Shown here piece after piece: positions 1,866 through 37,670 of a DNA stretch of 64,000 bases. Under the pieces are notes generated by a model, which did not search any database, had not been told where the DNA came from, and worked only from the letters and a program-made list of their open reading frames with translations. A program made the position numbers and the translations under genes. Origin of the DNA: Microcoleus sp. (lineage in GTDB: Bacteria > Cyanobacteriota > Cyanobacteriia > Cyanobacteriales > Microcoleaceae); the NCBI GenBank assembly GCA_042408215.1, contig JAYFMW010000012.1:1-64000 (forward strand), written 5' to 3'. Numbering within the stretch: the first letter of the stretch is position 1; each line of letters starts with the position of its first letter.

Positions 1866-3260
1866 TATAAAACTTTATTAAGTTTGTAAGCAGTAGTAAG
1901 CAAGGGTAGTATCATATAGTCAGAAGGCTCAACTGAGATAATTATTGCGATTGTTAAAAAATGGAGAGTCTGAATGCAACTAGCAGAAAGACATATCATT
2001 AAATCCACCGAAAATCGTTTTGTTGAAATTGACGGATTAGCCTTTAAATCCAAAAATCTATACAACGTCGCTAACTACGTTATTCGTCAGAGTTTTGTCT
2101 ATGGATGGGGTTATATTAATTACAACGAAATGAACCGTTTGATGAAGTCTCATCAAGCATACAAGGACTTACCAGCCAAGGTAAGTCAACAAATCTTGAT
2201 GATATTGGACAAGAATTGGCAAGCTTTTTTTGAAGCCGTTAAAGCTTACAATATTGAGCCAACAAAATTTACTGGTAGCCCAAAGTTGCCCAAGTACAAA
2301 GATCAAGTTAAGGGTCGGAATATTCTCGTCTATACGATTCAGGCGATTAGTAGCAAGCAACTCAAAAAAGGAATGCTCAAGCTTTCCGGGACTAATATCT
2401 TGATTAAGACCCTGGTAAAACCAGAGCAAATTTGTCAAGTTAGACTGGTTCCAAAATGTGATTCTTATGTAATCGAGGTAATTTATAATGAGCCGGAGTC
2501 CACCATTGATGAAAATCAGAAAGAATTAGTAGCTAGTATTGATTTAGGATTGAATAATTTAGTGGCGCTAACTTCAAATCAGCCGGGCTTTGTCCCTTTA
2601 CTGATTAACGGGCGACCATTAAAATCAATTAATCAGTTTTACAACAAGCGTAAAGCACATCTACAATCTCAATTGAAAGAGAGTCGCAAAACATCGCGTA
2701 GGATTCAGCGTTTGACTCGTTGTAGAAACCAAAAAATCGAGAATTACTTACACCAGGCCAGTCGTTCCATCATCAATATTTTAAGAGAACGAAAGCTCGG
2801 GACGCTAGTGATTGGAAAAAACCGACAATGGAAAAACGAGATTAACTTAGGGAAGCAGACAAATCAGAACTTCGTAACTATTCCTCATGCTCGATTTATT
2901 GAGATGTTGAAATACAAAGCTGAATTGGTGGGAATAAGAGTGATGGTGCAGGAAGAATCATATACTTCTCAATCCAGTTTCCTAAATTTAGATCCAATTC
3001 CTGTATACGGGAGTATTGGTGCCCTGGATGTCACATTCAGTGGCCAACGAATTAAGAGAGGATTGTACAAAACATCCTGCGGTCAATTAATTAATGCCGA
3101 CGTTAATGGGTCTTACAATATTATGCGAAAAGCAATCCCAAATGCCTTGTGCAATGGGATAGAGAGCTGCGTAGTTCAGCCGAGGCGGGTCAATCCGCTC
3201 GAAGTGAAAGCGAAAGGGGAGGGATTCAACGCCTCCCATGGCACTGTAATAGATGACTAT
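1866..3260 (+). mobile_element. TnpB-only IS200/IS605/IS607-superfamily element (copy 1)
   Basis: tnpB ORF; left end AGTAT|TATAAAACTTTATT and right end ACTAT shared with copy 2; boundaries inferred. Confidence 0.7.
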
Positions 3261-30772: not shown

Positions 30773-32098
30773 TGTAAAACTTCATTGACTTTATAGCCAT
30801 TAATAGCCATGTATAGTATAGTATAGTAAAAAATGACGGCAAAACAATGCAGCTAGTTGAAAAGCACATTATCGATCGAAACCACTGGCTATACAAGCAG
30901 CTAGATAATTTGTGCTTTCTTTCTAAGAATCTTTTCAACTACGCTAACTACCTGATTCGACAAAAATTTATCAGCTCAGGAGAATACCTCGACTATTACA
31001 AAATACAGAAACTATGTCAGGGAACGACTGACTATCTAGGATTACCAGCCAAAGTATCTCAGCAAGTATTATTGAGATTATATGAAAGCTGGAAATCATT
31101 TTTTGCAGCTACCAAGGAATATAACCTCCATCCAGATAAATTCAAAGCCAGACCCAAAATACCCAGATACAAACACAAAACATTAGGCAGAAATGTCCTG
31201 ACTTACACCGCTCAAGCCATCAGTAAAGAATGGCTCAAGAAAGGAATCATCAATCTCTCTTTGACCGACATATTTCTGACTACTAAAGTTAGCGAATTAA
31301 ATCAAGTCAGAATCGTTCCAAAAACTTACCATTACTCGATGGAGGTAGTTTATGAACCCAAGGATGTAACTCAATCATTATCAGGTGTTGAAGGGATAGC
31401 GGGGATTGATATTGGCCTAAATAACTTAGCGACAATTACATCCAATCAAAAAGGGTTTGTCCCGCTGATAATAAATGGCAAACCGCTCAAATCAATCAAT
31501 GCCTACTCTCACAAAAAGAAAGCAGACGTGCAGTCCTACTTGAAGGGGGAGAAAAAGACATCAATCAAAATTGAACAATTAACTCACAAGCGTAATGTAA
31601 AAGTAGATAATTACCTGCATAATGCAAGTCGATTCATCATCAATCATCTGGCAGCTAACCGAATCGGGACACTGGTGATTGGTAAAAACGATAACTGGAA
31701 ACAGGGAATAAATCTCGGCAAGCGGAATAATCAGAACTTCGTAGCAATACCTCATGCAAGGTTTATTGAAATGCTAACTTATAAAGCGCAATTAGCAGGA
31801 ATAGTTGTGAAGGTTATTGAAGAAAGTTACACTTCAAAGTGTTCTTTTTTAGATAATGAACCTTGTGTCAAGCATTCAGAGTACAAAGGTAAACGAATTA
31901 AGCGAGGTTTGTTTCGTGCTGGTGATGGCAGACCGATCAATGCGGATGTGAATGGCAGTGCTAACATTGTCAAAAAAGCATTTCCCAACGATGAAGCTGA
32001 GGGAATACAGGGCGTATTAGTACCTCCGGTAAGGGTCACACCTTACAAAATGGTTGCCCGAGGCAAGTGTAATATTTGCCTAGAAAACCTGTAACTAT
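30773..32098 (+). mobile_element. TnpB-only element (copy 2, same subfamily as copy 1)
   Basis: AGTAT|TGTAAAACTTCATT left end, CTGTAACTAT right end; boundaries inferred. Confidence 0.7.
30847..32094 (+). CDS. tnpB: RNA-guided endonuclease TnpB
   Basis: GIDIGLNN, IEESYTSK, INADVNGS. Confidence 0.92.
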   Translation: MQLVEKHIIDRNHWLYKQLDNLCFLSKNLFNYANYLIRQKFISSGEYLDYYKIQKLCQGTTDYLGLPAKVSQQVLLRLYESWKSFFAATKEYNLHPDKFKARPKIPRYKHKTLGRNVLTYTAQAISKEWLKKGIINLSLTDIFLTTKVSELNQVRIVPKTYHYSMEVVYEPKDVTQSLSGVEGIAGIDIGLNNLATITSNQKGFVPLIINGKPLKSINAYSHKKKADVQSYLKGEKKTSIKIEQLTHKRNVKVDNYLHNASRFIINHLAANRIGTLVIGKNDNWKQGINLGKRNNQNFVAIPHARFIEMLTYKAQLAGIVVKVIEESYTSKCSFLDNEPCVKHSEYKGKRIKRGLFRAGDGRPINADVNGSANIVKKAFPNDEAEGIQGVLVPPVRVTPYKMVARGKCNICLENL

Positions 32099-36099: not shown

Positions 36100-36108
36100 A
36101 AATTTTTT

Positions 36109-36139
36109 TTGACATAAAACGGGCAGTTCGATATATGAT
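36109..36139 (+). promoter_or_regulatory. Possible sigma70 promoter for rplS, now upstream of the IscB-type element
   Basis: TTGACA (36109) and TATGAT (36134), 19-nt spacer. Confidence 0.4.
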
Positions 36140-36228
36140 AAGAGATTGTGAGTTTTAGTAAATCCCGTCAGTAACCCAGCCCTCTCATAGACTGGGCTTG
36201 TAAGATTAATCAAGCAAGCCATACTGAC

Positions 36229-36408
36229 CAAGAAACAGGGATACAAGCCCCGTCCTTCTAGGACGACTTTAAGCTAAAATTGAGAAAAGTCGGGATGGGG
36301 AATCGCCACGACTCTAAACGGGCGCAGAGACAGAGTAAGACTACTCCGGTAGCATCAGTCGGTGAAGCGTCAAGAATCACCGCACCGACCGGGCGGTGAG
36401 TATTTCAA
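36229..36408 (+). mobile_element. 180-bp IS605-type mini-element (left end plus TnpB omegaRNA/right end, no ORF)
   Basis: Left end CAAGAAACAGGGATACAAGCCCCGTCCTTCTAGGACG; right end AAGAATCACCGC...GCGGTGAGTATTTCAA; inserted 3' of TGAC with no duplication. Confidence 0.75.
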
Positions 36409-36434
36409 CAGACAACCTAGTAATAGGTAGTCGT

Positions 36435-36764
36435 CCCAAGGGTTGATTAACAGTAAGACTTTTTCTGACATTTGCTAACAATCACTTACATTTGCCCGAG
36501 GTCTTTATGGCACTGTAGAATGAATTTAGCCACTCGGATTTAGGTGAAAAACCTTGGTAGTAAGCAACCTCTATCTAAATAAGTTGCCTCTACAGTATCA
36601 AAGCAAATAAAATCAAGATTGGCTAAATGCGGTCACGGGAAAACCAAGCTGAACGCTCATAGTACAAGTGCTTGTAGAGATTTCTACGGGCATTGGTTGA
36701 TACGCCTTAGTTGAGAACTGAGCTCAACTTATGTATTTGTTAGCAAACGTTAGCAAAAAAGGAT
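36435..36764. mobile_element. ~330-bp MITE-like insert with imperfect terminal inverted repeats
   Basis: TTTTCTGACATTTGCTAACAA (36461-36481) vs TTGTTAGCAAACGTTAGCAAAAA (36737-36759). Confidence 0.55.
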
Positions 36765-37155
36765 CGGTCACGACACCTCGGAATGCGACGCTAGTTCCCC
36801 GTTCTGTCGCTTGTGATTAAACAGTTTTAAGGTCACTGAAACAGTTTTGCAAGCCGGCGCAAGCCCAGATAACCAGGTCGAAGCGAACATTACCCCTCTG
36901 AGGGAGGCTCAATTGAGCAAACCGTTATGCGTACAGGATTGTGAGATTTGAAGTGAGAATTGCGATGCACCCTCGCGTAGCCGAGTCCCACTTTCATTGC
37001 ATTACACTCATCACACCGAATCCAGCAATCCTCGTGTAATGGAGAAAACATTCAAGGCGGTTAAAACCGCACGTGCGATGCCCTTCCTCGTAGTCGAAGG
37101 GTCGTTTCCCTCTCAGGTCTAAAGACTCTGAGTTTCCCACTTACCGAGTTTAGTT

Positions 37156-37539
37156 ATGAAAGGCGCAGAAATAATCCGCTCTCTTGAGACGGAAGAAATA
37201 GAGAGAGTCAAGGTAGAACTCAGCAAAGTGCTCCCCGAAATTTACGTCGGCGACACTGTGCGAGTCGGTGTGAAAATTAAAGAGGGCAACAAAGAACGGG
37301 TTCAGCCCTACGAAGGCACTGTGATTGCCATGCGTAACGGCGGAATTAATGAAACTATCACTGTTCGCCGTGTGTTTCAGGGCGTCGGTGTGGAACGGGT
37401 GTTTTTGATTCACTCGCCCCGCATTGCCACTATCCAAGTGATGCGACGCGGGAAAGTCCGCAGAGCAAAACTGTACTACCTGCGCGATCGGATTGGCAAA
37501 GCCACCCGCGTCAAACAGCGGTTCGATCGAGCTCTGTAG
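37156..37539 (+). CDS. rplS: 50S ribosomal protein L19
   Basis: [38 protein letters not shown]. Confidence 0.97.
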
Positions 37540-37670
37540 GAATGCACCCAGGCTATGCCTCATGGGGAAATTGGAAATTGAGAAATTTCCCAAAAAAATT
37601 TCCTATTTACGAGCGCACTGTGTTAGAATAGAAATCTAGAGGTTAAGCAACTCTTTGCAACCTCACCTGT

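Follow-up and report, generated by a model that had tools for sequence, protein, structure and literature searches.

A PATE-like mini-element with a predicted TnpB guide-RNA scaffold, nested in an ORF-less HEARO ahead of rplS in Microcoleus sp.

The first stem of an IscB-type guide-RNA gene (a HEARO) in the cyanobacterium Microcoleus sp. is split by a 180-bp mini-element. It lies in the first 64,000 nucleotides of contig JAYFMW010000012.1 (assembly GCA_042408215.1), the stretch of DNA analysed here and hereafter called the window. We conclude, with a probability of roughly 0.8, that the mini-element is an omega-RNA-bearing palindrome-associated transposable element (PATE) of a TGAC-targeting IS605 family, that it came to be nested by chance in a decaying HEARO without an open reading frame (ORF), and that it is not aimed at IscB elements. 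An earlier interpretation, made from the letters of this DNA without database searches (the sequence-only reading), had proposed that its guide would target IscB elements. The predicted guide fits almost no other HEARO, which argues for an ordinary, one-off nested insertion.

The mini-element, its guide-RNA scaffold and its relatives

Judged by its ends and its copies, the mini-element arose by deletion from a member of a TGAC-targeting IS200/IS605 family and encodes no protein. Its parts, all on the plus strand, are the following.

36225-36228, plus strand: TGAC, the insertion target tetranucleotide and predicted TnpB transposon-associated motif (TAM), taken from the left flank of the family
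36229-36408, plus strand: non-autonomous IS200/IS605-type mini-element, PATE-like, delimited by sharp boundaries among its genome matches
36251-36265, plus strand: left-end subterminal hairpin CGTCCTTCTAGGACG (DNA fold -6.5 kcal/mol, z -2.25)
36289-36406, plus strand: predicted TnpB omega-RNA scaffold of six helices including a pseudoknot (22-sequence alignment, RNAalifold and controls)
36377-36399, plus strand: right-end terminal hairpin CACCGC...GCGGTG with GAAT before it (DNA fold z -2.68)
36405-36408, plus strand: TCAA, the right cleavage site and final bases of the element
36409-36428, plus strand: predicted guide, a HEARO flank of 16-20 nt, CAGACAACCTAGTAATAGGT, placed by the rule of the family

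Both ends of the mini-element are sharply defined. The break points fall after positions 36228 and 36408, where the DNA reads CCATACTGAC (36219-36228), then CAAGAAACAGG...GCGGTGAGTATTTCAA (36229-36408), then CAGACAACCTAGTAATAGG (from 36409). In the host genome (7.36 Mb in 30 contigs, given below as C-numbers, with the window on C12), the element has 45 matches, including a full-length copy at C6:580232-580412 that is 97% identical and carries the identical internal deletion at another site. Other matches cover only the 122 nt of the right end, as at C6:79281-79402 (99%), C20:497625-497746 (91%) and C5:106467-106588 (87%). All 18 listed copies finish GAGTAT[T/G]TCAA, and the flanks beyond that point are unrelated. 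On the left, TGAC stands immediately 5' of the element in 22 of the 23 copies that have the left-end motif GGGATACAAGCCCCGTC, and the remaining copy is offset by one base. There is no target-site duplication at the 180-bp insert, and TGAC is not repeated after TCAA. The insertion divides the CTGAC/CAG junction of the first stem of the HEARO RNA; uninterrupted HEAROs read CTGACCAG unbroken, and the closest of them (C17:257751-257971) reads TGAC followed by CAGACCACCTAGTAATAGGTAAACGTT.

The internal organization is that of a PATE, with imperfect subterminal hairpins at left and right and no terminal inverted repeats. The left-end hairpin is conserved among 97 left-end matches across the genome, and the right-end hairpin has compensatory variants in other copies (CCCCG/CGGGG and CACTGC/GCAGTG). 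The 180 bp consist of a left end of about 42 nt, a 17-nt linker and the 122-nt right end; their coding content is limited to the last ~40 codons of tnpB, and they hold no protein gene. No Rfam family (E up to 10) matched either the 180-bp element or the second insert described below.

The right end has the conserved structure expected of a guide RNA. We aligned the 125 nt of the right end from 22 copies, both full-length elements and mini-elements. RNAalifold returned 28 base pairs, 17 of them with compensatory changes, and a 5' hairpin added by eye raised the model to 34 pairs in six helices. These pairs are 93.8% paired compared with 29-50% in slid controls, and pairs changed on both sides number 21 compared with 4-10; none of 500 shuffled controls reached any of five measures. 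A pseudoknot is predicted because the loop of the 5' hairpin pairs with the bases that immediately precede TCAA, an interaction in which six sequences show C-G to A-U covariation. The window copy on its own folds into the same helices, and every helix is intact.

All scaffold helices lie inside the retained 122 nt, and the deletion that made the mini-element stops 2 nt upstream of the first of them. The mini-element keeps the whole predicted scaffold and little else, namely only the parts needed for transposition and for guide-RNA function. Several diverged mini-element subfamilies (71-80% identical) show the same scaffold layout, which suggests that it is retained for a reason. A consensus promoter scan of the plus strand found no promoter-like site within 36229-36408, and the three plus-strand sites it returned are all in the second insert; any omega-RNA of the mini-element would therefore arise by read-through.

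Potential sources of transposase and nuclease are encoded elsewhere in the genome. Within C20:495900-497900, an element at C20:496072-497746 encodes a 135-aa Y1 transposase (Y1_Tnp, E 4e-38) and, on the opposite strand, an intact 395-aa TnpB with the domains OrfB_IS605, TNB and HTH. The best natural match of this TnpB in the PDB is ISDra2 TnpB (8bf8, 8h1j; residues 6-360, E 1.8e-59), and the motifs GIDLGI, VLEDLN and DRDENAA are readable in its translation. Its right end is 91% identical to that of the window copy over 122 nt. A second copy with both tnpA and tnpB lies at C3:452349-453996, and copies with TnpB only occur on C5, C1 and C30. The C20 and C3 elements share their ends with the mini-element and add a Y1 tnpA and a tnpB. 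Counted over the whole genome, matches number 20 for Y1 TnpA, at least 150 for TnpB and 31 for IscB (RRXRR). The TGAC-targeting IS200/IS605 family is, as far as its copies tell, active in this genome.

Much of what the sequence-only reading had described is borne out by these comparisons. A discrete IS605-like element with a left hairpin does occupy 36229-36408, as its sharp ends, family matches and DNA folds agree, and it was inserted between TACTGAC and CAG without target duplication, as the continuity of HEARO paralogs over the site confirms. The TnpB omega-RNA placed at the right end corresponds to the covariation-supported scaffold. The search proposed for further copies and their insertion sites yielded the 45 matches and the shared TGAC, and the parental tnpB with the same right end has a good candidate in the intact gene on C20.

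The family extends beyond TGAC. Sister subfamilies with different left-end motifs before the hairpin are flanked by TTAC, TTAT or CGAT. Across the left ends of the genome (e.g., C6:794080, C6:3195 and C8:86118), the flanking target changes together with the bases just 5' of the hairpin, in the pairs GGGATACAAG/TGAC, GGGTCTAAAG/TTAC, GGGTTTAAAA/TTAT, and GGGTTGAAAA or GGGTCTAAAA/CGAT or AGAT. This covariation points to a series of IS605 elements retargeted in nature, for which correspondingly different TnpB TAMs are predicted. Additionally, the 97% identical sibling (C6:580178-580232) is followed after 9-10 nt by the left end of a TTAT-type IS605 element, so that its would-be guide reads into the end of another transposon. 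The window itself contains two more TnpB-type genes, at 30847-32094 and ~2886-3122 (TNB matches C12:31753-31968 and C12:2886-3122), which belong to subfamilies other than that of the mini-element.

A twice-interrupted HEARO ahead of rplS

The host of the mini-element is itself a mobile element, which the sequence-only reading had missed, together with a second insert at ~36441-36767: it is a 989-bp, ORF-less HEARO element adjoining the start of rplS. The features are again on the plus strand.

36167-37155, plus strand: composite ORF-less HEARO (IscB omega-RNA) mobile element, 989 bp, of which ~484 bp are native (contig joint; alignment with inserts removed)
36167-36228, plus strand: HEARO 5' part, with the first stem GTCAGTA...TACTGAC and internal hairpins (paralog matches)
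36409-36442, plus strand: HEARO middle fragment between the inserts (paralog listing; alignment without inserts)
36443-36767, plus strand: IS607-type mini-element of ~325 bp, with GG common to both junctions, so that its ends are ambiguous by 2 nt (genome copies)
36768-36893, plus strand: HEARO 3' core, TCACGACACC... (cmscan with RF02033; blastn to more than 40 HEARO copies)
36894-37155, plus strand: tail of the HEARO element (no ORF), reaching to the ATGA target (blastn)
37156-37539, plus strand: rplS, ribosomal protein L19 (Pfam Ribosomal_L19, E 3e-44)

The element starts with 5'-GTCAG and ends immediately before the ATGA of the rplS start. The gene next to it on the other strand encodes a PHO4-family phosphate transporter. 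Since the HEARO element ends exactly before the ATGA, the essential rplS gene would be transcribed through or out of the composite. The repeat structure was mapped with blastn of 36100-37160 against the genome. Positions 36167-36230 match the first ~64 nt of ~15 other HEAROs (78-88%), 36225/9-36408 belong to one repeat family and ~36438-36768 to a second, unrelated one, and HEARO sequence resumes at 36766 and continues to 37160, the tail (37101-37160) matching ~25 other copies at 80-95%.

The Rfam HEARO model (RF02033) detects only the 3' part of this copy (cmscan, 36706-36893, 63.7 bits, E 3.4e-12) and does not reach its gathering score of 83 bits, because the two inserts split the copy. Genome-wide, the model has 70 matches, 64 of them above the cut-off. 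With both inserts removed, the 484-nt remainder aligns over positions 1-484 to C14:59011 (84.1%) and over positions 1-476 to C17:257751 (83.2%), ungapped at both junctions, and is thus collinear with bona fide HEAROs over the whole RNA. No ORF of at least 50 aa matching IscB lies within 36167-37155.

Assembled reads show the site in two states. A contig of run X16 joins position 36166 directly to 37156, which corresponds to an allele lacking exactly the 989-bp composite, and a second contig of that run covers 36113-36267 with the insert and without differences. Forms with and without the element therefore occur in run X16, and the insertion ahead of rplS appears to be polymorphic, or undergoing excision, in it. 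An allele with an intact HEARO but without the 180-bp insert was not seen in four runs, although absence from contigs proves nothing. One apparent candidate, a joint from 36429 to 36766 with AACGTTATTTA between, was rejected as the paralog at C17:257751 and not an allele of the window locus.

The second insert splits the HEARO between CCCAAGG and TCACGACACC. Its copies at C6:423247, C6:743684, C5:370533 and C5:363572 are 97-99% identical. Sharp ends are also evident in 13 other copies, and HEARO-like flanks occur at none of them. The last ~100 nt match DNA behind TnpB-like frames of ~526 aa that contain the Pfam domains TNB, HTH and OrfB_IS605 and have 9b0l as their best PDB match. These frames adjoin an ORF whose start, judged by eye and without a family scan, resembles a MerR-type helix-turn-helix, which suggests that the second insert is an IS607-type element. 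An alignment, made without controls, also suggests a conserved scaffold of ~115 nt at its right end, with a long-range helix beside the end. The flank behind it (TCACGACACCTCGGAA, from 36768) is conserved HEARO core. As a would-be guide, TCACGACACCTCGGAA matches five other genomic sites with one mismatch (positions 11-14) and one site with two, and all six sites with at most two mismatches are HEAROs.

Other HEAROs of the genome are also unusual in length. Four copies that score above the Rfam cut-off (C3:441114-441356, C5:369767-370010, C6:1031175-1031458 and C6:234434-234691) exceed the usual length by 20-65 nt; their first stem or second hairpin contains short inserted repeats (for example with the motifs CACTTCGAC...GCGAGCGTG). 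At C20:689444-689634, not far from a tnpA (C20:691681-692034), an element of ~190 nt seems to join the HEARO 5' part straight to the common tail, as if the scaffold had been deleted internally.

Reach of the predicted guide and competing explanations

The guide of the mini-element would be the flank just past TCAA (CAGACAACCTAGTAAT...) and its TAM would be TGAC. The TAM is predicted because TGAC is the left flank of the family, and this part of the sequence-only reading stands, while the position of the guide follows from the family rule only. A 601-nt contig from the RNA library of run X1 covers 36297-36897 across the 36408/36409 junction, although its strand and ends are unseen and DNA carry-over is possible. 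Contigs of the same run extend over 36297-37600 and none covers the adjacent phosphate-transporter gene, a difference that we do not use as evidence. Bases 7-20 of the guide belong to the second hairpin of the HEARO and form the self-hairpin ACCUAGUAAUAGGU in the RNA fold.

The guide is poorly suited to other HEAROs. The sequence-only reading expected it to cut uninterrupted copies of the IscB family and proposed a genome search for intact targets; TGAC followed by the 16-nt guide has no perfect site in the genome. The nearest sites have one mismatch (C17:257913, minus strand, at guide position 6) or three (C5:439323 and C7:267741), and the remaining sites have five mismatches and lie outside HEAROs. 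TGAC itself stands at the end of the first stem in 60 of the 69 other HEAROs. Against the guide, however, one of these 69 has a single mismatch, two have three, and in 57 at least 6 of the 16 bases differ; the HEAROs linked to an IscB ORF that were scored (n = 11) have 7-10. The match is poor across HEAROs because the guide falls on the variable second hairpin. The one near-perfect paralog, at C17:257913, has no ORF.

The distribution of insertions gives no sign of a homing-like process, contrary to the conflict or drive that had been envisaged. Among the 45 right ends of this type in the genome, that of the window alone is inside a HEARO, and among 74 HEARO 5' loci, paired with 78 3' loci, that of the window alone is split by inserts. 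Two further candidates were discarded: the apparent split HEARO at C30:201635 is a truncated copy with an IS605 element 430 nt away and outside it, and at C23:21527-21708 the 35 nt upstream resembled the interior of the first stem (blastn), but cmscan at E up to 10 found no HEARO there, so that the resemblance is put down to chance. The right junction was not found in 24 congeners, 19 of which gave only right-end matches (query 1-40/51), and 16 other genera gave no match at all. For the left junction, with 11 candidates scored per genome in 78 congeners, the 150 matches listed were HEARO-only or left-end-only, and none spanned the junction. The insertion looks like a single, recent, lineage-specific event.

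It is very unlikely, in our judgement, that the omega-RNA of the mini-element and a TnpB supplied in trans cut HEARO or IscB copies at TGAC+CAGAC, whether as a conflict between TnpB and IscB or as a homing-like drive by break repair. Some of its ingredients are in place: the TAM is family-wide and common at the end of the first stem, 15 of the 16 guide bases are shared by one paralog and 13 by two others, the genome has intact TnpB genes, the scaffold is complete, and an RNA-library contig crosses the junction. However, the great majority of HEAROs, and all IscB-linked ones scored, differ too much on the variable hairpin, the best paralog is ORF-less, and no second HEARO carries the insert. 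In ISDra2 TnpB, according to excerpts of a review, double mismatches at positions 1-12 abolish cleavage in vitro, marking this stretch as specificity-determining, and positions 13-16 matter less (PMC13639567). The mismatch of the best paralog at position 6 falls within that stretch, for which double mismatches were the ones tested. The repair arms also speak against copying. Since the left arm has 62 nt at ~85% identity and the right arm only 34 nt before the second insert, break-repair copying into a paralog is unlikely. The guide predicted for the second insert fits the cross-family idea better than that of the 180-bp element. A broader version would have one decaying HEARO carry two stand-alone TnpB-type guide modules in the leader of an essential gene, both in the orientation of the HEARO and with guides reading into it, so that TnpBs acting in trans could bind or cut several guide-RNA genes of the IscB family. 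We consider this very improbable as well; were it true, families of RNA-guided transposons would truly interfere with one another or undergo gene conversion.

The junctions could in principle be chimeric repeat joins, because the region is built of multicopy repeats that are prone to assembler misjoins. This is extremely unlikely, as the independent X16 contig bridges the left junction, the X1 contig bridges the right junction and the entire second insert, and both junctions follow the TGAC...TCAA rule of the family exactly. A more serious alternative, possible but to our minds doubtful, is that the mini-element is an inert relic whose RNA is never made or loaded, with a guide that has no activity, not even in self-retention. 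The mini-element has no promoter-like site, its left-end hairpin is one change away from that of most copies (GGACGAC instead of GGACGGC), its guide folds on itself, and its host HEARO is disrupted twice. Nevertheless, the copy is young (its sibling shares 97% identity with it, and another right end 99% over 122 nt), every scaffold helix is intact in it, several diverged subfamilies retain the scaffold, and an RNA-library contig spans the element.

We therefore prefer a chance nesting of an omega-RNA-bearing PATE, for which the following course of events is plausible. A Y1 TnpA acting in trans would have pasted the mini-element 3' of a TGAC, and this target would by chance have been the strand that closes the first stem in an ORF-less HEARO docked before rplS. 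The same decaying HEARO would also have taken up the IS607-type mini-element. Because a TnpB always takes its guide from the DNA that adjoins the right end, the guide of the mini-element would be HEARO sequence by construction, and a guide equal to the empty donor site is normal for every IS605 insertion. The natural target of this guide would be the joint that the element leaves behind when it is excised (TGAC+CAGACAACC...), where a TnpB supplied in trans could bring the element back. If the guide has any use, the likeliest is to retain the element at this donor site. These considerations argue that the HEARO-derived guide of the 180-bp element is a by-product of the landing site.

Several observations weigh against this interpretation. 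One HEARO paralog is only one base off the guide, so some cross-reaction is possible, and two TnpB-type mini-elements in one HEARO exceed the naive expectation. The nearest elements with an intact tnpB diverge by 9-13% from the right end of the window copy, so the compatibility of their TnpB with its scaffold is only inferred. The consensus scan found no plus-strand promoter-like site in the mini-element. The RNA evidence consists of assembled contigs that show neither 5' nor 3' ends nor strand, from a library that may contain DNA. Additionally, the folding of guide bases 7-20 may hinder even self-targeting.

Relation to known elements and significance

The mini-element resembles several described systems and coincides with none of them. 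According to excerpts of the study by Meers et al. (2023; PMC10055086), PATEs of Geobacillus stearothermophilus "often encode omega-RNAs", which have to be used in trans by a TnpB from another locus. As far as those excerpts describe them, our mini-element is like these PATEs in having no ORF, in its end hairpins, in its position 3' of a short TAM without duplication, in its predicted omega-RNA for a TnpB encoded elsewhere and in its presumed dependence on a transposase in trans. It differs from them in belonging to another sequence family, in its TGAC target and in the location of this copy inside a HEARO. Omega-RNA-bearing PATEs are thus already described, and the TGAC family with its HEARO-nested copy adds another.

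Two further comparisons concern IS605-type elements. As in the TnpB-omega-RNA of ISDra2 (8bf8, 8ex9 and 8h1j), the RNA would come from the 3' end of tnpB plus the right end, with the guide just outside, and a pseudoknotted scaffold of ~118 nt is predicted. In contrast to ISDra2, the RNA module of the mini-element stands alone without a gene and its predicted TAM is TGAC; the TAM of ISDra2 TnpB is TTGAT. For IS608 of Helicobacter pylori, we assume a geometry with a tetranucleotide target 5' of the left end that covaries with the bases before the hairpin, a TCAA end, GAAT before the right hairpin and no duplication. The target, TCAA end and GAAT of the mini-element family, and its lack of target duplication, agree with this assumed geometry. 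Unlike IS608, the subfamily of the mini-element targets TGAC, and TTAC, as in IS608, is the target of a sister subfamily of the same genome.

The host and the second insert have relatives as well. Cyanobacterial ISC/IscB elements such as Microcystis ISC1-1_MA have, in the excerpted account of Kapitonov et al. (2016; PMC4810608), an N/ATGA target and a 5'-GTCA terminus. The host HEARO likewise starts with 5'-GTCA, ends directly before ATGA and has the HEARO scaffold (RF02033), in agreement with what that account gives for these elements. Unlike ISC/IscB transposons, it lacks an iscB gene and is interrupted by two foreign mini-elements. The second insert is like the TnpB elements of the IS607 family, which combine a serine recombinase with TnpB, in its last ~100 nt and in the GG at both junctions, and unlike them in being protein-less and only ~325 bp long.

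The mini-element is a cleanly mapped, natural case of a TnpB guide-RNA module that stands alone, in a PATE whose trimming stops 2 nt before the first scaffold helix, and its genome shows dense nesting of IS605, IS607 and IscB-type elements. The covariation-supported scaffold, together with the TGAC, TTAC, TTAT and CGAT subfamilies, could help in searches for compact TnpB systems that differ in their TAM. Activity of the guides on paralogous HEAROs, if it occurred, would amount to interference between two RNA-guided transposon families.

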